From an uncultured Actinomycetes bacterium (GTDB lineage Bacteria > Actinomycetota > UBA4738 > HRBIN12), in the NCBI GenBank assembly GCA_963704885.1, contig CAVPIB010000001.1:608001-672000 (forward strand): 64,000 nucleotides of DNA, in the 5' to 3' direction. Shown here one piece after another: positions 41,688 to 53,792 of this stretch; within the stretch, counting starts at the first letter, position 1, and each line of letters starts with the position of its first letter. Both the position numbers and the translations under genes were made by a program. The notes under the pieces are model-generated. The model ran no database searches. It was not told the origin of the DNA and saw only the letters and a program-made list of their open reading frames with translations.

Positions 41688-44600
41688 ATGCCCGTCTGCG
41701 GGTCCTGCGGTCAGGGAAACCCCGCGCGAGCACGATTCTGCATGTCGTGCGCGTCGCCGCTGGCTGTCGAGGAGCAGGGCCCCGGCGCCCGCAAGACCGT
41801 GACCGTGGTGTTCTGCGACGTCGAGGACTCCACCCCGCTCGGCGACCGCTTGGACCCCGAGTCTGTCCGCCAGGTCATGACGAGCTTCTTCCGCGAGATG
41901 CGCAAGGCGCTCGAGCGCCACGGCGGCACCGTGGAGAAGTTCATCGGCGACGCCGTGATGGCGGTGTTCGGCGTTCCGCTCTTGCACGAGGACGATGCGT
42001 TCCGCGCGGTGCGCGCGGCGCAGGCCATGCGCGAGGCGCTCGACGGTTTGAACGCCGATCTAGAACGGCGGTTCGACGTCCGGCTGCAGACGCGTATCGG
42101 TGTGAACACCGGCGAGGTCGTGGTGGGCGATGCCTCGGCCGGTCAGGCGCTCGTCGTCGGCGATGCGGTGAACGTTGCGGCTCGGCTCGAGCGGGCGGCG
42201 GGCGCAGGCGAGATCCTCCTGGGGCCGGCGACGCACGCGCTGGTCCGCGACCACGTGGTCGCAGAGGTGACGGCACCGCTGGAGCTGAAGGGCAAGGCCG
42301 GAACGCTCGTCGCGTACCGACTCGCGTCTATCGGGCCGGGGCCCGACGAGATCGGCAGCCGGCCCGTTCCCCCGTTGGTCGGTCGCGAACACGAGCTCGA
42401 GACCCTGCACTCCGCGTTCGACCAGGTTGTGGATGAGCGCTCTTGCGCCCTCGTCACGATCCTGGGTCCGGCCGGGGTGGGGAAGTCCCGCCTGGCTCGG
42501 GAGTTCGTGCCGAGGACCCAACCCGATGCGCTGGTGCTCCGGGCCCGTTGTCTCCCGTACGGCGATGGCATCACGTTCTGGCCCGTGGCGGACCTGGTGA
42601 AGCAGGTGAGCGGGGTCGCCGATGACGAAGATCGAGGCGACGCGCGCTCGAAGATCGAGGCTGCGATGGCAGGCTGCCTCGACGGCACCCTCGTCGCCAC
42701 GCGCGTCTCCGGCGTGACCGGGTTCGCCAAAGCCACCGCCGGGCTGCAGGAGACCTTCTGGGCTATCCGGCGGTTCCTCGAGTGGGCCGGCCGCGACCGG
42801 CCCCTCGTCGTGATCCTCGACGACGTGCAGTGGGCCGAGCCCACCTTCCTCGACCTCGTCGAGTACCTCGCGGGATGGAGCCGTGACGTCGCGATGCTGC
42901 TCGTGTGCATCGCGCGTCCGGATCTGATGGACGAGCGCCCTACCTGGGGGAGCGGCGTCGTCAACGCCTCAGTCCTTCCGCTGGGTCCTCTCGATGAGCG
43001 CGAGAGCGAACTCCTCGTCTCCGAGCTGCTCGGGGGCGCTCGGCTGGACGAGCGGGTCTTCGCCCGGATCTCCGAGTCCGCCGACGGCAACCCGCTCTTC
43101 CTCGAGGAGATGCTGCGCATGCTCGAGGACGATGGGTTGCTCCGCGCGGGACGAAGGGGGGCGGGTCGCGACAGCGGACCTCGGCGAGATCCGGGTTCCT
43201 GAGTCGATCCAGGCCCTGCTGAGTGCGCGGTTGGATCGGCTCTCGCAGGAAGAGCGTCTGGTTATCCGCTCCGCGGCGGTGATCGGCAAGGTGTTCTGGT
43301 GGGGCGCTGTTGCCGAGCTCACCCCCGAGTCGCTCCGACCGGGTGTGGGGGGTGCGCTCCAGACGCTGGTTCGCAAGGACCTGATCCATCCGGAGGCCTC
43401 GACGTTCGCGGGAGAGGACGCCTTCCGCTTCCACCACATCCTTATCCAGGAGGCCGCCTACCGCGGCACCCCGAAGGAGGCACGTGCAGAGTTGCATGAG
43501 GCCTTCGCGAAGTGGTTGGAAAGGGTCGCGAGCGATGGCGTCGCCGAGCTGGACGAAGTGATCGGCTTCCACCTGGAGCAGGCCCATCGCTACCGCTCCG
43601 AGCTCGCGCCCCATACCGCCGGCGATGGCGACTTGGCGACCCGCGCCGGACTGCGACTCGCCTCCGCCGGGATCCAGGCGTCCGAGCGCCGCGACGTCCC
43701 CGCCGCGGCCGACCTGCTCGGACGGGCCACCACGCTGCTCCCGGCCGAGCATCCCGAGCGGCGAGCAGCCCTGCTGGCTCTCGGTGAGGTGCTGGGCGAG
43801 GCGGGCGACTTCGGACCGGCCGAGGCCGCTCTGGAGGAAGCTGGATCCCTCGCATCCGCAGCCGGCGATCAGGTCACCGAGGCCAACGCCGCGATCCTGC
43901 GGCTGTTCCTGCTCGAACACACGGACCCGAAGCACCCGACCGTTGACGTGCTGGCTGAGGCCGAGCGGCTGATCGCCACGCTCGACGCCCTGGGAGACGA
44001 CCTCGGTCTGGCCAGAGCGTGGCGCCTGGTCGGGGACCTGCACTGGAACCATGCGCACTACGGCGCGGCCGGAGACGCGTTGGAACGCGTGATCGAACAC
44101 GCGCGCCGCGCGGGGGCGACGCGCGAGGAGGCCGATGCATTGGGTCGCTACGCGGGCGCGGGTACCTACGGACCTGCGCCCGCCGAGGAGATCGAGCGGC
44201 GATGCGACGAGCTACTCGCAAGGACAACGGGCTCGGGGCACGAAGCGCCCGCCTTCCGAGCGCTCGCGTGGGTCCGAGCGATGCAGGGGCGGTTCGACGA
44301 GGCTCGCGAACTGGCCAGGCGGGCCCGCGCCATCTTCGAGGACCTAGGGCTCCGCATGCGGGCTACGTTCGTGGCCGAGACGGCCGGTGCGATCGAGATG
44401 CTCGCTCGAGACGCAGACGCCGCCGAGCGCGAATGGCGCGCGGGCCTCGACGCGGCCGACGAGATGGGGGAGCTGGGTTTCCAGTCCACGATCGCGGCGA
44501 TGCTCGCCCATGCGCTCCTCGAGCAGGGCCGCCTGGATGAAGCAGAGGAGATGGTCTCGCTCAGCGACCGCACCGGGGCAGAGGACGACGTGAGCACCCA

Positions 44601-44877
44601 GGTGCTCGGGCGCAGCGCCCGGGCTCGCGTTCTCGCCGCCCGAGGGCGGACCGAGGAGGCCGAGCCCGTCGCGCGCGAAGCCGTCGAGTTGTCCGAGGCG
44701 ACCGACGACCTGAACATGCGCGGCGACACGCTGGTCGACCTTGGCGAAGTGCTGGCTGCGGCCGGCGATCGCGAGGGTGCTAAAGCGGCGTTCGCCTCGG
44801 CGCTGGATCTCTACGAGCAGAAGGGGAACGCGGCCGCGGTCGAAGTCACCCGGCGCCGTCGGGCAGCGCTCGAGTGA
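41688..44877 (+). CDS. Zinc-ribbon - class III cyclase - AAA ATPase - TPR protein, frameshift near 43146
   Basis: CxxC...CxxC; VFCDVEDST, KFIGDA, GDAVNVAAR, GPAGVGKS, GNPLFLEE; continues as VPESIQALLSARLDRL in the +1 frame. Confidence 0.88.
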
Positions 44878-44980
44878 AGTGTCCGGGTCAAACGGACATC
44901 CACAGATAGTGACCGTTGTCACGGAGATCGCTCTTGGGGATCGCTTAGCTCCTCGTGATTTCACGAAGGAGGTCGGTTCC

Positions 44981-45457
44981 GTGGGTCAATCGAAGCCGTG
45001 TTGGGTCTTGCTGATAGCTCGGGAAATGCAGGTTCACATACCGCCCGAGCTGTACACCAGCCTGGATCAGGCGGAGGACGAGGCCAGACGCTGGCTCTCC
45101 ACGTTGTTCTCCTGGAAGCCCACCTCGAAGCGAGTGTCCACGTCCGGGACTCTGCAAGTGGGGCGCCGCTTCGTCCTGCACATGGTCAGTTTCGATTTCC
45201 CCGATCCCTGGCGAGCAGGCTCACTGTGGCTCGGGGCGGAGTGGACTGCGAGGTCCTACCCGCGAATGCGTACAGAACTTCTTCCCACGGATGCAGACGG
45301 GGCACGAAGTTGGGTTTCCGTCAGACTCTCGCGACGCATGGCCCCTGTTCGGACCTCGCCGTGGTGCTACTCAGGGCGGTATGAGTTGGGTAGCAGCACT
45401 CGTTACGTGACGGCTGGCAGGATCAAGCGCGTGTGTGGTCCTTGGACTGGGGCGTGA
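44981..45457 (+). CDS. Hypothetical protein
   Basis: AAGGAGG RBS before GTG 44981; stop abuts gmrSD stop; atypical codon usage. Confidence 0.5.
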   Translation: MGQSKPCWVLLIAREMQVHIPPELYTSLDQAEDEARRWLSTLFSWKPTSKRVSTSGTLQVGRRFVLHMVSFDFPDPWRAGSLWLGAEWTARSYPRMRTELLPTDADGARSWVSVRLSRRMAPVRTSPWCYSGRYELGSSTRYVTAGRIKRVCGPWTGA

Positions 45458-45458
45458 T

Positions 45459-47210
45459 TCAGATCCCCCATACGTCTGCTGCGATCTCGAGGAGCATCTC
45501 TTCGCGGATCGCAACCTCCTTGCCGCTCCAAGTCGAGAAGGGGCGAAGCCCGTAGCGGTCGGCCGTCTTCTTCGTCTTGTCTTGCTTACCGAGCGAGATA
45601 TCCACGACGAGGGACTTCGTCAGCTCGAAGTCGGACTTCTCATAGAGAGTGGCCTTCTGCTGGAAGGGTTTGTTGCGCGCAATTGCATTCGGTCCACCGT
45701 AGAGCAGCGTAAGGTTGCCGAGTCGGTATGTTGCCTGAGCTGATCCGGTGCCGAAGGCATCCAGGGCCTCCTCGCTCGGCCTTTGCGGCAGAATGTGTTC
45801 GATAGTGACGCCCCTCTTGAAGTACTTGAAGAAGTCGTCGTCCTTCCCGCACGCAACCTCGATGTGATGAGTCAGTTTGGCGAGGATGTACTTCAGGAGA
45901 CTCGATCCGACTTGATTCGTCTGAGCCAAGCTCTCTCGCGCCGTCGGAGCTACCTCGCTAGTCTTCCGTCTCAGCTGGGCGAGGAACCGTGCGAAGTCGT
46001 CAGAACTCTTGACCTCTCTCAACATGCCGCACCAGCCCGGCAACGCCTGCTCAATATCGTTCCACTGGGCGCCCGCCAGCGTGTATGCAAGCACCAGCGC
46101 CTCCACATGGCGTGCAAGTTCGGTGAACTCCGATTGTGTTCGGCCGGCACCGGCCATGAGCAGCGGAAGGTACTGACTGACACCTGTCCGCTGATACCGT
46201 ATGCCCATCAGGTGGAGGTTCTCGTCCTCCCAGGGATCAAGGCCAAGTCGGATGTTGATGTAATCCTGAGATGCCTGGGCCAATTCCTTGGCGAATCGAA
46301 GTGGATTGTTCGAGTAGCGGATCGCGTCGTCATGATCAAGGATCCATTGGAAGAGCTCGCTAGCCTTTGGCATCTTGGGGAAGTCATAGGTCGCGACAAG
46401 GTGATACCTGAGGAAGCGGAGTGGTCGGCGCTCACCACCCTTCCTAAGTGTCGCGAGGACGTGCTCCCAAGTGGCTACTAGTTCTGAGTGCTGGCTTTCT
46501 GGCGCCTCTCGAAAAAGCAGGTTCTTTAGCAGGTCCATCGCGTTGAGGACGACACCGCGATAGTTGAGCACCTCGAAGATCGTCAAGGCGCTCTGGAAAT
46601 CCCCGCTCGTAACCCGGATCAACTCCAGGTTGAGTAGAACAAACGCATGGAACTTCTTGATGCCTGCTTCGTTATCTTCGCCGAACCTCTCGATGAGGAA
46701 CTGCCGACACAAGCGGTAGGCATCCAGGAGCGGTCTTCCCACATCAGCCTTCCCCAGGTCGAGGCTAGCGACGTGGCCTTCACCGATTGCGTGGAGCACT
46801 TTGTTGCTCGGTTTGTACCGAAGCTCCATGCGATGTCGCAGCACGGTATTGCCTGAAGGATCGATGTCTGTGTCGAGGATCGCCTTGTCGAGAGTCGCGA
46901 CGTTTGCATCCTCGCTGAAGTCCTTCAAGCGATCTCGAACTGCACAGAAAAGCAGGTACAACGTGGTCAGCCGTTGCTGTCCATCGACGATGGCGAGGCT
47001 CTTGCCATGATCAGTCTTGAAGACCACGATGCTGCCTAAGAAGTAGTTATCCTCGTCGCCGGATTCATAGGCTCCGTAGATATCCCAGAGAAGCTGGTCT
47101 ACCTGTTTCTGTCGCCAAACGAACTCGCGCTGGAAGTCAGGGATGACGTAGAACGACGCAAAGACATCCTTCGCGGGCATCGCCTCCGTCTTTTCAATGA
47201 CTATCGACAT
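45459..47210 (-). CDS. GmrSD-family DUF262-DUF1524 (HNH) endonuclease
   Basis: IPDFQREFVW, YFLGSIV, VDGQQRLTT, FEVLNYRG...DLLKN, TIEHILPQ, LGNLTLL...N; GGAGG RBS. Confidence 0.9.
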   Translation of the reverse strand: MSIVIEKTEAMPAKDVFASFYVIPDFQREFVWRQKQVDQLLWDIYGAYESGDEDNYFLGSIVVFKTDHGKSLAIVDGQQRLTTLYLLFCAVRDRLKDFSEDANVATLDKAILDTDIDPSGNTVLRHRMELRYKPSNKVLHAIGEGHVASLDLGKADVGRPLLDAYRLCRQFLIERFGEDNEAGIKKFHAFVLLNLELIRVTSGDFQSALTIFEVLNYRGVVLNAMDLLKNLLFREAPESQHSELVATWEHVLATLRKGGERRPLRFLRYHLVATYDFPKMPKASELFQWILDHDDAIRYSNNPLRFAKELAQASQDYINIRLGLDPWEDENLHLMGIRYQRTGVSQYLPLLMAGAGRTQSEFTELARHVEALVLAYTLAGAQWNDIEQALPGWCGMLREVKSSDDFARFLAQLRRKTSEVAPTARESLAQTNQVGSSLLKYILAKLTHHIEVACGKDDDFFKYFKRGVTIEHILPQRPSEEALDAFGTGSAQATYRLGNLTLLYGGPNAIARNKPFQQKATLYEKSDFELTKSLVVDISLGKQDKTKKTADRYGLRPFSTWSGKEVAIREEMLLEIAADVWGI

Positions 47211-47228
47211 GTGTCCTCCAGCGAACCC

Positions 47229-47669
47229 TCAGTCTGGAACCTCGACAACGAAGCGGAACATGCGTCTCTGTTGCGAAGGGTCCAGGGACTCGTACCACCT
47301 CGTGACGTACCACATGCCCCAGAAGCGATAGCGACGAGGTATCTCCGGGAGTACCTCGAACACGTGGACAGGACTCCTGGTCTCATGCGCACGGAGCAGC
47401 CCGAGATTCCATCTGTTCCATTGTTGGTCGCCCGGTGGACCACCCTGTCCGGTGTAATCGAGAGAATGTCCGCGCGAGATCCACGCGTCGTGGTAACCCC
47501 AATCCTCGTTCTCATGCGGGCGGAAGCGAATGGAGACGGCGATATCGCTTCCGCTGGGCACATAGATGCCTTTGTAGAAGTCCTTGTGGACTGTTCGAAA
47601 CTTGGTGGTGCCTACAAGTTGGCCCGGTTCGAGGGTCACGACCAGAGGATCCGTAGCAGCCTGCCTCAA
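47229..47669 (-). CDS. Stand-alone SRA/YDG-like modified-DNA reader domain (start uncertain)
   Basis: KGIY, YHD, DYTGQGG..GDQ, RWNLGL, PVHVF, YRFWG, FRF ordered as in SRA domains; no nuclease domain. Confidence 0.7.
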   Translation of the reverse strand: MRQAATDPLVVTLEPGQLVGTTKFRTVHKDFYKGIYVPSGSDIAVSIRFRPHENEDWGYHDAWISRGHSLDYTGQGGPPGDQQWNRWNLGLLRAHETRSPVHVFEVLPEIPRRYRFWGMWYVTRWYESLDPSQQRRMFRFVVEVPD

Positions 47670-47670
47670 G

Positions 47671-48701
47671 TCAAGCTTGATTGTTCGGGAACTCCCCCTT
47701 CACGCCGAGCAGCCTCACTTTCCGCTCCAGCTCGAACCGGTCCAGCGCCGCGAGTGCTCCCGCTTCGATCGTCTCGAGACCGAGAGTGTCGGCTCCTCCA
47801 GCTTCACGCTCCGCTGCTTCGTGATGAACGGGACGAACCGCACCTTCACGATCACGCGGATCACGGGGCGGCCGTCGCGCTCGAGGTCCTCCATCAGCTC
47901 GTGGGTCAGGCGCACGAGTTCGCGGCGGATCTCTTCGGGGTCCTCCAGGTCCTGTTGGAACGTGCGTTCGCGGCTCACGCCCTTCGGGACCCACGGCTCG
48001 GCGCTCACGTGTGAGCCGCCCTCGCCGGTCGCGAGCTCTCGCAGCCACGGGCCGGTCTTCGGGCCGAACGCCGACGCCAGCCGCGACTCGTCGGTCGCCG
48101 CGAGCTCCGACACCGTTCTGATGCCGAGCGACGCGAGCTTCCGCGCGGTCTTCGCGCCGATGCCCCACAGCGCGTCGGTGGGGAGCGCGCCCATCACCTG
48201 ATTCCAGTTCTCGCGGGTCAGGCGGAACACGCCGCGCGGCTTCGCGAACCCGCTCCCGAGCTTCGCGCGGAGCTTGGTGTCGCCGACCCCGATCGAGCAC
48301 CACAGCTCGGTCCGCTCCAGCACCGCCGCCTGCACGTCGCGCGCGAACGCCTCGGGGTCGTGGGCCTCGATCGCCATGAACGCCTCGTCCCACCCCCACA
48401 CCTCGACCACCGCCGGGAACGACCGGAGCACGTCCATCACCAGCTTCGAGGCCTCGTCGTATGCGGGTCCGTCGACGGCCAGGAACACCGCTTCGGGGTT
48501 CCGCTTGTACGCGGTGCGCAGCGGCATCCCCGAGCCGATCCCGAACTTCCGCGCCTCGTAGTTCGCGGTCGAGACCACGCCGCGCTTCGTCGGGTCGCCG
48601 TCGCCGCCTACGACCACGGGCTTGTTGCGCAACTCCGGCCGGCGGAGGATCTCGACCGCCGCGATGAACTCGTCCATGTCCACGTGCAGGATCGCGTCCA
48701 T
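47671..48701 (-). CDS. dinB: DNA polymerase IV, frameshift near 47787
   Basis: LHVDMDEF, STANYEAR, GWDEA, LWGIG; C-terminus ALDRFELERKVRLLGV lies in a second frame. Confidence 0.9.
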
Positions 48702-48795
48702 CCGGACAGGATGCTGCAATGGAGGGACCTCTGACCGTTGATACTCTCGCGGTCTGCGTGAAAGGTCCGCGCGACCTGACTAGCCCGGAGGTCTG

Positions 48796-49854
48796 GTGGG
48801 AAACATCCTGGTAGTCGATGACGATCCGCTGAACCAGCGCTTGCTAACCGGCACGCTCGAGCGCTTCGGGCACACGACCTCGTCGGCGTTGGATGGGAGC
48901 ACCGCCTTGACGATGCTCGCGGATACTCCTCCGGACGTCGTGCTGCTCGACCTGGTTATGCCCGGCATGGACGGGATGCAGGTGCTCGAGCGCATCAAGG
49001 CTGATCCCGACCTCCGGCACCTGCCGGTGATCGTGATCAGTGGCGTAGACGACGCCGAGAGCATCGTCCGCTGCATCGAGATGGGCGCCGAGGATTTCCT
49101 GCCCAAGCCGTTCGACCCTGTGATCTTGAAGGCGCGCGTGAACGCGGGGCTGAACCGCAAACAGCTGCACGACCTCGAGCAGGAGCGGGTGCGGAGCGTC
49201 TTCGCGCGGCTCGTCCCCGAGTCGGTCGTGGGCGCGTTGCTCGACCGAACAGAGGGCGGCTCCACGATCCCCGCCGAGTCGCTCACCGGCACGGTGCTGT
49301 TCGGCGATCTGCGCGGCTTCACGCCGTTCGCGGAGGCCCGCCCCGTCGATCAGGTGATCGGCGTGCTCAACCGATACCTGGGGTTGATGACCGACGCGAT
49401 CCTGGATCACGGCGGCACGCTCGTGGACTACATGGGCGACGGCGTGATGGCCGCGTTCGGCGCGCCGGTGCCCATGGGAGATCACGCCGATCGCGCGGTC
49501 GCGGCCGCCCGCGAGATGTCGACCGACAAGCTCGCCGCATTCAACGACTGGCTCGAGGGGACCGGGATCGGCGACCGGTTCCGGATGGGGATCGGGCTCA
49601 ACTCGGGCCCCGTGATGTCTGGCAGCGTCGGCTCGGAGCGACGTCTGGAGTACGCGGTGATCGGCGACACGGTGAACACGGCGTCACGGATCGAAGGGCT
49701 CACGAAGCAAGTGCCGCACGCCGTGCTCCTGGCCGAGGGCACCTACACCTCACTGCGATCGACCGAGGGGCTCACGTTCGTCGACGAGTTCGAGATCCGC
49801 GGCCGTCGGTCGAGGATCAAGGTGTGGGCCCTTGAGCACCCATCGGAGCGCTGA
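48796..49854 (+). CDS. Response regulator receiver - class III adenylate cyclase fusion
   Basis: VVDDD, LLDLVMP, KPF; FGDLRGFT, DYMGDG, GDTVNTASR. Confidence 0.92.
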   Translation: MGNILVVDDDPLNQRLLTGTLERFGHTTSSALDGSTALTMLADTPPDVVLLDLVMPGMDGMQVLERIKADPDLRHLPVIVISGVDDAESIVRCIEMGAEDFLPKPFDPVILKARVNAGLNRKQLHDLEQERVRSVFARLVPESVVGALLDRTEGGSTIPAESLTGTVLFGDLRGFTPFAEARPVDQVIGVLNRYLGLMTDAILDHGGTLVDYMGDGVMAAFGAPVPMGDHADRAVAAAREMSTDKLAAFNDWLEGTGIGDRFRMGIGLNSGPVMSGSVGSERRLEYAVIGDTVNTASRIEGLTKQVPHAVLLAEGTYTSLRSTEGLTFVDEFEIRGRRSRIKVWALEHPSER

Positions 49855-52800
49855 TGGGGGACGGCAAGAAGAAGAAGACGACGAAGGCGCTGAAACGGCG
49901 CATTTCCGAGCTCGAGGAACAGGAGGTCGAGTCCCGGCGCGCTGCGGAGGTGGACGCTGCGCTGTACCGGATCGCGCAGGCCGCCAGCTCCGTCACCGAC
50001 ATGCAGGCGTTCTATGCCGCGATGCACGGCATCGTCGGCGAGCTGATGGATGCCAGCAACTTCTACATCGCTCTTTACGACGAGGCGCGCCAGATGATCA
50101 ACTTCCCCTACTTCGTCGACGAGGTTGACCTGGACGTCCCGGACCCCAACGTGTGGGAGCCGTTCGGTGTCGGGAACGCACGGGGAACGACCGCCTACCT
50201 ACTGCGCACCGACCAGCCCACACTCATGGGTCCTGATGACTTCGACAAGCTGACCGCTGCAGGCGAGTTGGAGCTGGTCGGCGAGCTGGGCCAAGACTGG
50301 CTCGGGGTCCCATTGAAGTCCGAGGGCCACACCCTCGGCGTCCTCGTGGTCCAGACCTACACGCCCGACAAGCGGTTGACGAGGGCAGACCTGGACATCC
50401 TGACCATCGTGGGGGAGCACGTCGGGACCGCGCTCGAGCGCACCCGGCTGATAAACGAGACCCGCCAGCGCAGCGCCGAACTCACGTTCGTCAACGACGT
50501 CCAGCGGGGCCTGGCGGAGCGGCTGGACATGCAGGCGATGTATGACCTGGTCGGGGATCGTATCCAAGAGATCTTCGATGCTCAGGTCGTGGACATCGGG
50601 GTCGTCGACCCCGACTCGGGCCTGATCCACTTCCCCTACACGATCGAGCGAGGCGTCCGGTTCCCGGACAAGCCGATCGAGCTGATCGGCTTCCGGCGGA
50701 TGTCGCTCGAGACCCGGGAGCCCGTTGTCATCAACGAGGATGTCGGACGCGCGGCGACCGAGGTAGGGCAGCCCTTGGTGCTCACCGGCGAACCGCCGAA
50801 GTCGTCCGTCTTCGTTCCGCTAGTGGTCGGCGACCGGGGGACCGGTGTCATCTCGCTACAGAACCTCGACCGGGAGCACGCGTTCAACGACGCGGACGTG
50901 CGCCTCCTGACCACGCTCGCCGGCAGTTTGAGCGTGGCGCTCGAGAACGCGCGGCTGTTCGACGAGTCTCGGCGGCGCGGCACCGAGATGGCGGCCCTCG
51001 CGGAGCTGGGGCGCGAGATCGGGGGGTTGCTCGACCTCGACGCGGTGCTTCGCCGCATCGCGGAGCGGGCACGGGACCTGCTGCGGGCGGACACGAGCGC
51101 CGTCTTCTTGGAGGAGGGCCCGGGCGCCGGGCGGTTCGTGCCGCTCGTGGCGCTCGGCGATCTGGCGGACCTCATCATGGCGGACTCGATACAACTAGGT
51201 GAGGGCGTGATCGGCGACGTCGCGAGCCGCGGCTCGGCCGAGGTGGTGAACGACCTCAAGCGCGATCCGCGCGCGGTCCAGATCCCAGGCTCGGAGGAGG
51301 ACCAGGAGGAGCGTCTCATGGCCGCCCCTCTCCTGTCCCGTGGGCGCGTGATCGGGATGATGGCGATCTGGCGCACGGACGCTCACGCGGAGCCGTTCAC
51401 GGCCGACGATCTCAACTTCTTGGTCGGCCTCTCACAGCAGGCCGCGGTCGCGATCGAGAACGCCCGCTTGTTCCAGGAGAGCGACCGGCAGAAGCAATAC
51501 TTCGAGTCTCTCGTCGACATCAGCCCCGTCGCGGTCGTCACGATGGATCCAGACGAGGTCGTGTCCGGCTGGAACCCGTCTGCCGAGCGGTTGTTCGGCT
51601 ACTCCGCGCAGGACGCGATCGGACGGACGATCGACTCGCTCGTGATCAAGTCGTCCGAGTACGCCGACGAGGGGGAGGCGATCGTCCGCGAGGCGCTGGA
51701 GCAGGGCCGGTCGCACCGTTTGACGCGTCGGATGCGGGCCGACGGCGAGTTCGTCGAGGTCGAGGTGGACGTCGTTCCTTTGGTGGTCGACGGCCAGCAC
51801 CAGGGGTTCTACGGGATCTACCACGATGTCACCGAGCTCCAGGAGGCCCGCCGCACCGCCGACTCGGCCAACGAGGCGAAGAGCGCGTTCTTGGCCACGA
51901 TGAGCCACGAGATCCGCACTCCGATGAACGCGATCATCGGCATGAGCGGGCTGCTGTCGGGCACGGCATTGAACGACGAGCAGCGCGAGTACGCCACGAC
52001 GGTCTCGTCGAGCAGCGAGGCCCTCCTCGCGATCATCAACGACATCCTCGACTTCTCCAAGATCGAGGCCGGGAAGATGGAGCTGGAGGAGGCGCCGTTC
52101 GACCTGCGTGGCTGCATAGAGTCGGTCGTCGAGCTGGTCGGGCCCGTGGCCGGGGGGAAGGGCCTCGAGGTCACCTACCTCATGGAACCGGACACGCCGG
52201 AGGTCGCCGTCGGCGACGCGAGCCGGCTGCGGCAGATCCTGCTGAACCTGCTGAACAACGCGGTGAAGTTCACCGAGACCGGGGAGGTCGTGGTCACGGC
52301 CGGCTCGGCGCCGGCGTCCGTCGACGGGAAGCTCGGCTTCCGGGTCTCGGTCCGCGACACCGGGATCGGGATCTCGCCGGACCGGGTCGACCGGCTCTTC
52401 CGGTCGTTCAGCCAGGCCGACGTCTCGACCAGCCGCCGTTACGGCGGGACCGGCCTGGGCCTCGCGATCAGCAGGCGGCTGGCGGAGCTGATGGGTGGAA
52501 CGGTGACCGTCCAGAGCTCCGGCGTCCCAGGTGAGGGCAGCACTTTCCATCTGACGTTCGAGGCCGGGGCCACGGACATGACGCCGACCGCCCTGCGGCG
52601 GGATGGATCCCTAGGGGGCCGTCGCGCCCTGGTCGTGGACGACAACGCTACGAACCTGCGGCTCATGACCGAGCTGCTCGGCGCCTGGGGCCTAGAGGTC
52701 GTCACCGCCCCGGGCGTCGACGAGGCGCTGGCGGTGCTAGATGAGGGGACGTTCGACGTGGCGGTCCTCGACATGCTGATGCCCGGTGCGGACGGGTTGG

Positions 52801-53792
52801 ATCTGGCAGCGTCGCTCCATGCTCGCCTGCCGGACCTACCTGCGATCCTGGCATCGTCCGTTGGGCGGCGGGAGGTGGAGGCCGATCCCCGCTGGACGCT
52901 CGCGGGGATCGCGGCCGTCGTTACGAAGCCGATCAGGGCCTCGACGCTATACGCCGCCGTCGCGTCGGTCCTGGGCGAAGCGTCCGGGGATCGGGCCGAG
53001 GGCCGAACGACGGACGAGATCGACGGGGAGCTCGGCGCCAGGCATCCGCTGCGGATCTTGCTCGCCGAAGACAACGTGGTGAACCAGAAGCTGGCGATCC
53101 GGCTGCTGGAGAAGATGGGCTACCGCGCGGACATCGCCGCTAACGGCGTGGAAGCGCTCGAAGCGCTCGAACGCCAGCCCTACGACCTGCTACTCAGTGA
53201 CGTGCAGATGCCCGAGATGGATGGTGTCGAAACCACGCGCCGGATCCTGAAGCGGTGGGAACCGCAAGACCGGCCGTGGATCGTCGCGATGACCGCCGAG
53301 GCGATGCAGGGCGACCGCGAGCGGTTCCTGGCGGCCGGGATGAACGACTACGTCATGAAGCCGATCCGGACCGAGGAGCTCGTGGCGGCGATCGAGCGGA
53401 CCCCGCGCCGTGGCGACGGCGAGCCGGCCGCGACGGGACCGGTGGACGAGAAGGTCATCGAGAGGCTCGTTGAGAGCACCGGCGACGGGTCGTTCGTGGC
53501 GGAGCTGATCGATCAGTTCCGCGCCGACGCGCTCGGCCTGGTCGAGACCGCGAGGGCCGGCGTGGCCGCAGGAGACGCCGACGAGGTCCGCCGCGCCGTG
53601 CACACCCTCACGTCGAACGCGGCCACGTTCGGCGCGACAGATCTCGCCGTGCAGAGCCGGCAACTCGAGGAGTCGGCGAAGAGCGGGTCTCTCGAAGACG
53701 TCGGGCTGCGCCTGGACGCGATCGCCGAGCAGGTGGAACGGGTTCGCGGATCCCTGGCAGCCGCGAAGCAACGACTCTCCGGATCGCGATAG
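49854..53792 (+). CDS. Hybrid histidine kinase (3xGAF-PAS-HisKA-HATPase-2xREC-Hpt)
   Basis: [32 protein letters not shown], two receivers, RRAVHTL Hpt. Confidence 0.94.

Follow-up and report, generated by a model that had tools for sequence, protein, structure and literature searches.

The window considered here, a stretch of 64,000 nucleotides (nt) from an uncultured actinomycete (contig CAVPIB010000001.1, positions 608,001 to 672,000), carries on its minus strand a gene for a stand-alone SRA protein, followed by a gene for a GmrSD-like enzyme with DUF262 and DUF1524 domains. Together the two genes are read, with confidence slightly better than even, as a horizontally mobile two-gene modification-dependent (type IV) cassette, in which the SRA protein would mark modified DNA and recruit or license the GmrSD. 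Both families are known; what appears to be new is the two-gene pairing of a stand-alone SRA with a GmrSD. Type IV enzymes usually either combine reader and nuclease in a single protein or are GmrSD enzymes that sense the modification themselves. That a bare SRA precedes a complete GmrSD suggests that a reader may be supplied in trans, and new specificities against DNA-modifying phages would arise quickly by such additions.

The SRA protein and the GmrSD enzyme

An earlier note on this DNA, made from the sequence alone, described the upstream open reading frame (ORF) as one of ~146 amino acids (aa) with SRA/YDG-like motifs. All of the motifs quoted are present in the translation, which holds KGIYVP, GYHD, YTGQGGPPGDQQ, WNLGLL, SPVHVFE, and RYRFWGMW, and the ORF scores 32.4 bits for Pfam SAD_SRA (PF02182; cut-off 30.7, E 9.4e-8, profile positions 23-140 of 148); the whole-genome Pfam scan gives the protein 31.5 bits for the same domain. 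Neither HNH nor any other Pfam domain besides SAD_SRA was found in the ORF, which stops after the SRA domain. The length stated in the note is that of the maximal ORF (146 aa), and the protein itself is probably shorter: homologue N-termini and the assembly's own product for the gene (P0001, 136 aa) point to a start at GTG 47639 and a protein of 136 aa.

The SRA fold proposed in the note was borne out by structure prediction. The AlphaFold2 model, built on a 19-sequence alignment, has a pLDDT of 90.4 and a pTM of 0.84 and is an SRA fold, a PUA-like beta-barrel with helices. Foldseek gave 70 matches at E<=1e-3; the best are SUVH5 SRA structures with methylated or hydroxymethylated DNA (3q0c, E 8.2e-9, TM 0.74), further matches include KRYPTONITE, SUVH6, TagI, UHRF1/UHRF2, and MspJI, and almost all of those listed are SRA-type readers. 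A sequence-profile search of the PDB also found the SUVH5 SRA (E 9.5e-5); the designer PPR proteins ranked above it were discarded as sums of nine very weak repeats. Pairwise alignment with the SUVH5 SRA retains GY.D, YTGQGG, P.DQ, and NL.L, which form the pocket for the flipped cytosine (5-methylcytosine, 5mC) in UHRF1 and SUVH5. The loop after YTGQGG is 9 residues shorter than in SUVH5 and is presumably the counterpart of the finger behind the hemi-methyl-CpG preference of UHRF1. Residues A44, S46, G58, Y59, D61, Y72, T73, G74, Q75, and G76 are invariant across the 19 SRA sequences. The protein probably flips out and binds 5mC or 5-hydroxymethylcytosine (5hmC) in incoming DNA.

Eighteen other clusters, of 115-156 aa and with 53-68% identity to the SRA protein, came out of a word-indexed search, and the family alignment has 29 invariant columns including the pocket motifs, a mean column identity of 54%, and a common C-terminal end. 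When four homologues were scanned with Pfam, P0004, P0005, and P0007 were above the SAD_SRA cut-off and P0019 was just under it. When 1.84 billion representatives were searched exhaustively with a profile, 48 proteins reached E<=1e-3, of which 6 reached E<=1e-30. None of 55 pattern matches in viral contigs was confirmed as a relative, and none was found in the plasmid or phage records searched.

Profile search and Pfam place the closest relatives outside the family among proteins with SAD_SRA plus HNH (P0024-P0028). This kinship would suit an SRA-HNH gene in decay that has lost its nuclease half, as the earlier note had considered, and so would the genome G108, where the gene upstream of a GmrSD encodes an HNH enzyme of ~310 aa whose N-terminus is remotely SRA-like. 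Decay is contradicted by the 18 clusters, all of 115-156 aa, with their common C-terminus and 29 invariant columns, by the four diverged loci in which the SRA gene stops at the same place with the GmrSD directly after, and by a FastTree phylogeny of SRA domains (root chosen by hand, without support values), in which the SRA-HNH set lies apart from a single clade of stand-alone forms. The uniform length, invariant pocket, and separate clade thus lead to rejection of the truncated remnant, which we regard as extremely improbable. The family may have originated by loss of the HNH domain, but the gene is maintained.

The stand-alone clade also contains the SRA domains of two larger proteins, both C-terminal: P0020 (881 aa) is a UvrD-like helicase and P0021 (327 aa) is a UDG-family glycosylase, and the latter fusion raises the possibility of a glycosylase directed at modified cytosine. 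The helicase and glycosylase fusions fit the SRA as a portable reader module. In a wider form of this idea, the SRA would be a portable trans-acting specificity subunit that re-aims self-sufficient DNA enzymes at 5mC/5hmC, and orfX, a gene next to the GmrSD gene, would be a second, undescribed accessory, common in this lineage to three unrelated families of modification-dependent nuclease. This wider form is tentative and, on present evidence, doubtful; if true, the pair would be the first case of a GmrSD enzyme with a PUA-type reader split from it.

In the GmrSD ORF, Pfam finds GmrSD_N (E 1e-33) and GmrSD_C (E 4.5e-16) in one chain. PADLOC, one of the checks suggested in the earlier note, matches the enzyme to its models for Orf5 (6.7e-72) and for HEC-06 (3.9e-68, over residues 18-535, nearly end to end) and has no model that matches the SRA protein; NCBIfam has no match for either protein. 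The translation contains IVDGQQRLTT, with the NTPase motif DGQQR, and TIEHILPQ, with the His-Me motif EH..P, and residues D76, G77, Q78, Q79, R80, E471, H472, N499, and N508 are invariant in 39 GmrSD sequences. HEC-06 defence is abolished by Q79A, R80A, E471A, and H472A, as shown by Payne et al. (bioRxiv 10.1101/2024.01.29.577857). As judged from its sequence, the GmrSD of the window is a complete HEC-06-type enzyme with the essential residues intact. It belongs to a very large family, in which at least 2299 of the 8000 candidates scored have E<=1e-30, but only about seven clusters are >=60% identical to it.

Linkage of the two genes

The earlier note placed the SRA ORF 18 bp upstream of an intact DUF262-DUF1524 gene and in the same orientation, and the ORF list and Pfam agree: the minus-strand order is dinB, the SRA ORF, 18 nt, and the GmrSD ORF, with the last two ORFs co-oriented. 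The spacer holds a Shine-Dalgarno-like GGAGGA (47219-47214), 3 nt ahead of the GmrSD ATG. A terminator scan found no minus-strand terminator-like site in the spacer or between dinB, the SRA gene, and the GmrSD gene, and no sigma-70-like promoter was found, where 0.6 would be expected by chance. Among indexed sequencing runs, no RNA run was listed, and two DNA runs contained a small share (0.07) of the sequence words. The SRA stop TGA is in frame with the GmrSD ATG 21 nt on, without a stop between them (window 47208-47231, minus strand). The same is true of L001 (L001:6437-6443), one of the loci described below, and the frames differ in L002 and L003; a read-through fusion was rejected as a conserved feature because the frame is matched only in the window and L001.

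Pattern scans of 185,579 species turned up a single additional genome locus (L001, in a metagenome-assembled genome), and four metagenome loci (L002-L005) were found as well. Counting the window, there are six loci with a member of the SRA family, and the gene downstream of the SRA gene is visible in five. The GmrSD gene follows on the same strand and in the same order, after a gap of 1-25 nt, in four of these five (the window, L001, L002, and L003), so that the pair, for which the earlier note had suggested a neighbourhood search, is indeed recurrent. The linked GmrSDs are 68-71% identical over their full length and the linked SRA proteins 54-64% identical, and in all four of these diverged loci the SRA stop is at the same place with the GmrSD directly after it. 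The flanks vary by locus and include dinB, a Methyltransf_11 gene, a phosphoesterase gene, and an ORF of unknown kind. Because the same pair recurs elsewhere, the adjacency of SRA and GmrSD is beyond chance. The SRA of L003 is identical to cluster P0010 over the aligned columns, and the longest contigs of SRA cluster P0010 and GmrSD cluster P0069 are both 5396 nt long.

Both genes are more AT-rich than their flanks, as the earlier note had observed. In 500-nt windows the GC content is 0.546-0.594 over positions 45250-47749, compared with 0.68-0.72 in the flanks; by gene it is 0.583 for SRA and 0.564 for GmrSD, compared with 0.698 for dinB and 0.709 for the ATPase gene on the other side. Third-position GC is 0.68-0.71 in the SRA and GmrSD genes and 0.94 in dinB. 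With cassette values of 0.546-0.568 and flanks of 0.63-0.70 in L001-L003, the cassette is about 10 GC points under its flanks at every linked locus. Nucleotide similarity between the window and L002 is confined to window positions 45459-47605, that is, to the two cassette genes. The SRA gene was found in 1 of 41 genomes around that of the window (G000) and in 1 of 61 around that of L001; given these sporadic finds and the varied flanks, the unit is considered rare, sporadic, and mobile. A search for insertion signatures gave no convincing direct repeats, and a 31-nt, 77% inverted pair inside the two flanking genes was taken as chance.

Several observations weigh against a working partnership. 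The linked loci found number only four. One of them, L001, has a frameshift in both cassette genes (L001:6085-6100 and about 7398); that in the SRA gene is an extra G in a G-run and may therefore be a sequencing error. The SRA gene of L005 is disrupted, with its middle segment in another frame (L005:3899-4390); either sequencing error or decay may lie behind the disruptions of L001 and L005. Since a flanking gene is common to L001 and L005 (85% identity), the two do not count as independent. In L004 the SRA homologue is without a GmrSD and faces Mrr_cat and PD-Lambda-5_A-like genes; the segment L004:4042-8588 encodes a 259-aa protein with a NERD-like motif (seen by eye), an Mrr_cat protein, and a 422-aa PDC-M38A / PD-Lambda-5_A-like protein. 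By FastTree the L004 SRA groups in the sub-clade that holds the P0020 helicase fusion, and the 253-aa ORF upstream of it has no similarity to that fusion. Among the 48 profile matches no SRA-GmrSD fusion was found: 18 of the 48, together with P0020 and P0021, were scanned with Pfam, and the remaining ones are too short for a GmrSD.

Further points of the same kind come from the nuclease. HEC-06 defends as a single gene, according to Payne et al. (bioRxiv 10.1101/2024.01.29.577857). When the SRA-linked GmrSD clade was compared with 31 more distant relatives, either without an SRA gene or with neighbours that are not visible, there was no indel of more than 3 aa and there were 14 clade-specific substitutions, so that nothing in the SRA-linked GmrSD appears to need a partner. 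Two GmrSD genes in the host's family (G108 and G147; 35-39% identical) lie beside orfX without a stand-alone SRA, and none of the three plasmid-borne GmrSD relatives examined has an SRA gene upstream; the small genes upstream of these plasmid relatives are not SRA-like. From the intact GmrSD and its SRA-less relatives it follows that the SRA gene is an addition to one twig of a self-sufficient family, and the SRA protein is an add-on to GmrSD. Modelling of the SRA and GmrSD complex gave ipSAE values of 0.19 and 0.11, compared with a mark of 0.32, in runs without controls; these values weigh on neither side of the question of binding.

The main rival explanation takes these points at face value: two independent functions would co-travel, with the GmrSD acting alone like HEC-06 and the SRA protein either acting alone or serving any host nuclease. 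The SRA protein could, for example, clamp modified phage DNA and block its replication or transcription, and the linkage would then reflect co-selection and not a complex. The single-gene action of HEC-06 and a GmrSD clade that lacks nothing agree with this, as do the L004 SRA, which lies without a GmrSD in a defence island, and the fusion of the SRA clade to unrelated enzymes. It does not readily account for the gap of 1-25 nt and the fixed order in four of four linked loci, which persist despite 54-71% sequence identity and varied flanks, or for the nucleotide similarity between loci, which spans exactly the two genes. Tight operons usually encode cooperating products, and this too counts against independence. 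We judge independent co-travelling to be unlikely, though it is the alternative that we take most seriously.

A different form of coupling would make the SRA protein a brake or guard, which keeps the GmrSD inactive, or shields sites, until it is titrated by modified DNA. The tight linkage and a GmrSD that should be active by itself are in keeping with this, and nothing beyond these points to it. The host has no C5 methylase and hence no self 5mC to shield, and GmrSD relatives exist without such a partner; a brake is thus thought very improbable.

Under the preferred reading of a modification-dependent cassette, the SRA and GmrSD genes would be co-transcribed, possibly together with the upstream dinB. 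The SRA protein would flip and hold modified cytosines on incoming DNA and recruit or license the GmrSD, which would hydrolyse NTP and cut. In this way the SRA would add 5mC/5hmC DNA to the targets that the GmrSD attacks by itself; the earlier note's proposal, that a separate reader sets or extends GmrSD specificity, would be of this kind. The host, which does not make 5mC, would have its own DNA spared, and because sister species methylate cytosine at the same locus, methylated DNA and phages carrying it would be expected to circulate in the lineage. From sequence we infer 5mC binding, operon expression, and a physical or functional coupling of SRA and GmrSD, the coupling from linkage only. 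If the reading is true, the pair would be a minimal system in which to study the handover of DNA from a base-flipping reader to a nuclease, and it may yield reagents for mapping 5mC/5hmC.

Relation to known systems

The earlier note did not recognise the pairing as a named system, and no description of a stand-alone SRA gene paired with a GmrSD was found in the literature searched, which covered passages of articles. The closest known enzyme is represented by HEC-06, whose PADLOC models the window GmrSD matches and with which it shares DGQQR with Q79/R80 as well as E471/H472; HEC-06 was tested as one gene, whereas the window has an SRA gene fixed 18 nt upstream. HEC-06 is distinct from BrxU, as reported by Payne et al. 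(bioRxiv 10.1101/2024.01.29.577857). GmrSD, Eco94GmrSD, and BrxU are type IV enzymes with activity against hydroxymethylcytosine (hmC) and glucosyl-hmC, and BrxU is also active on 5mC; their restriction is modification-dependent and NTP-stimulated (PMC12707154). Like the window enzyme, they have a DUF262 NTPase and a DUF1524 His-Me nuclease in one chain (PMC12707154), but they sense the modification themselves, without a PUA-type reader, and the window enzyme scores best with HEC-06/Orf5.

Two-gene systems with GmrSD-like proteins are also known. TgvAB and GrwAB from Vibrio cholerae target hypermodified DNA (bioRxiv 10.1101/2024.11.23.624991) and resemble the window pair in joining a GmrSD-type nuclease with another protein, which has its own gene in the same two-gene operon. 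TgvA and GrwB start with DUF262, however, whereas the partner in the window is an SRA protein of 136-146 aa without DUF262; because their partner proteins begin with DUF262, the pair is not of the TgvAB/GrwAB kind. The SRA-HNH enzymes TagI, ScoA3IV, and TbiR51I (PMC6212794) have SRA domains that are the closest relatives of the SRA protein, and the TagI structure (6ghs) was matched by Foldseek. Enzymes of this type read 5mC/5hmC with little sequence context (PMC12707154). They have the reader and HNH in one polypeptide, whereas the window reader is without a nuclease and the adjacent nuclease is of another family; since the nuclease is not fused, the pair is not of the SRA-HNH family.

Precedents for the idea come from other ways in which readers are joined to nucleases. 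Rare EVE-GmrSD fusions (Bell et al., PMC7641849) also combine a base-flipping reader of the PUA superfamily with GmrSD; their reader is EVE and is fused, whereas the reader in the window is SRA and is separately encoded. In SauUSI-like systems the specificity domain can be a separate protein that neighbours the nuclease-ATPase gene (Lutz et al., PMC6765204), but the reader is DUF3427, the nuclease is PLD, and the motor is a helicase (PMC6765204).

The dinB-adjacent hot spot and orfX

The cassette lies at a spot downstream of dinB that in this genus is a variable hot spot for restriction genes. The limit of similarity to same-genus genomes is at window positions 47686-47692 on the dinB side, just beyond the stop of that gene, and on the opposite side either at the ATPase gene's end (44874) or within orfX. 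The spot corresponds to about 44875-47690 in the window and to L013-L018 in the genomes G007, G001, G004, G005, G006, and G009, and its cargo differs among them (Table 1).

Table 1. Features of the window, and related loci in other genomes
Feature	Position	Strand	Remarks
Stand-alone SRA (SAD/SRA) gene	47229..47669	-	146-aa ORF from TTG 47669; stop TGA 47231-47229
Spacer between SRA gene and GmrSD gene	47211..47228	-	18 nt; read from sequence
GmrSD-like (DUF262 + DUF1524) gene, HEC-06 type	45459..47210	-	583 aa from ATG; Pfam and PADLOC
Low-GC inserted cassette	45458..47687		about 2.2 kb; similarity limits and GC profile
orfX, ~150-aa conserved protein	44981..45457	+	477-nt ORF convergent with GmrSD gene
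dinB	47715-48719	-	upstream of SRA gene
orfX homologue	L014:2874-3368	-	
orfX homologue	L002:3128-3595	+	
orfX homologue	L001:8239-8730	+	
orfX homologues	L038-L056		
Cargo at dinB spot, G001			AspBHI/MspJI-type enzyme; PADLOC mREase_II, 3.7e-101
Cargo at dinB spot, G006 and G007			~310-aa HNH protein
Cargo at dinB spot, G005			BglII-like endonuclease and C5 DNA methylase
Cargo at dinB spot, G004			C5 methylase fragment
Cargo at dinB spot, G009			MutH/Sau3AI-like gene

The ~310-aa protein has a C-terminal HNH_2 domain (L017:6035-6952, L013:2565-3521, and L047:8748-9680, all on the minus strand), and its N-terminus has a weak match to the SRA profile (hhalign probability 44%, E 2.4e-4). In G108 the gene for this protein is 456 nt upstream of the GmrSD, the position held by the SRA gene in the window.

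As the earlier note had stated, neither methyltransferase nor ssp/dnd genes are adjacent to the cassette, the neighbours being dinB, orfX, and signalling genes. This can be extended to the genome as a whole: the whole 97%-complete window genome has no match to the C5 DNA methylase family (PF00145), and a whole-genome scan found one SRA gene and one GmrSD in it. The alternation of 5mC writers and 5mC-dependent enzyme types at one locus would fit 5mC as the relevant mark. The ecological logic of the spot would be that some species methylate cytosine and others carry enzymes that destroy cytosine-methylated DNA.

The gene orfX is convergent with the GmrSD gene in the window, and the two stops are 1 nt apart. 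Neither Pfam nor PADLOC has a match for its product, the Atlas gave nothing >=0.9, Foldseek gave nothing at E<=1e-3, and the best VIA-align Z is 5.5, over residues 78-148 only. The product is thus left without an assigned family or fold, though not thereby shown to have a new one. Of 151 genomes sampled in the taxonomic order, 22 have orfX; the host's family, with 79 genomes, accounts for 21 of these, and the 71 genomes from elsewhere in the order have none. The set of orfX loci considered here (n = 24) consists of the window, L001, L002, G001, G006, and 19 more, with the unpublished G154 and G159 excluded. An AspBHI-like (7), ~310-aa HNH (6), or GmrSD (5) gene lies no more than about 1.1 kb away in 18 of the 24; in the other 6 the neighbours were compared only with the query set of this study. 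The gene is thus a recurrent neighbour of modification-dependent nucleases; it may serve as an accessory or only mark the hot spot.

A three-part system, in which orfX would be an accessory such as a regulator or immunity factor that works with SRA and GmrSD, has the adjacency in its favour: orfX adjoins the GmrSD in the window, L001, and L002, where the homologues of L001 and L002 (34-38% identity) lie just after the GmrSD and are co-directional with it. The 18 of 24 loci near an AspBHI-like, HNH, or GmrSD gene support it as well, and the three same-genus genomes whose cargo at the dinB locus is type II-like show no orfX within 6-7 kb. The details argue the other way. The orientation of orfX to the nuclease varies and may be convergent, divergent, or co-directional, L003 has no orfX in the roughly 800 nt after its GmrSD, and the gene is confined to one bacterial family. 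Six AspBHI-like genes are present in 101 genomes of that family; four are beside orfX, but two are without it within 5 kb. The orfX of the window is 67% identical to that of G001, which lies just before an AspBHI-like gene and so accompanies another nuclease, and only 34-38% identical to those of L001 and L002, which accompany the same cassette. Its identity tracks the host and not the cargo, and therefore orfX is not part of the mobile SRA-GmrSD unit; a three-part system is considered improbable.

Signalling genes surround the cassette at window positions 41688-44877 and 48796-53792, as recognised by eye from the translations. Their products are a zinc-ribbon/cyclase-like ATPase pair, with a TPR-rich protein at its end, and a response-regulator-cyclase, together with a GAF/PAS histidine kinase of 1312 aa that also has receiver and Hpt domains. 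In the genome G007 the ATPase-gene flank occurs twice, in different versions, with the HNH gene after one (G007:C1:120671-122543) and orfX after the other (G007:C13:2606-4480), which suggests strain heterogeneity in that assembly.

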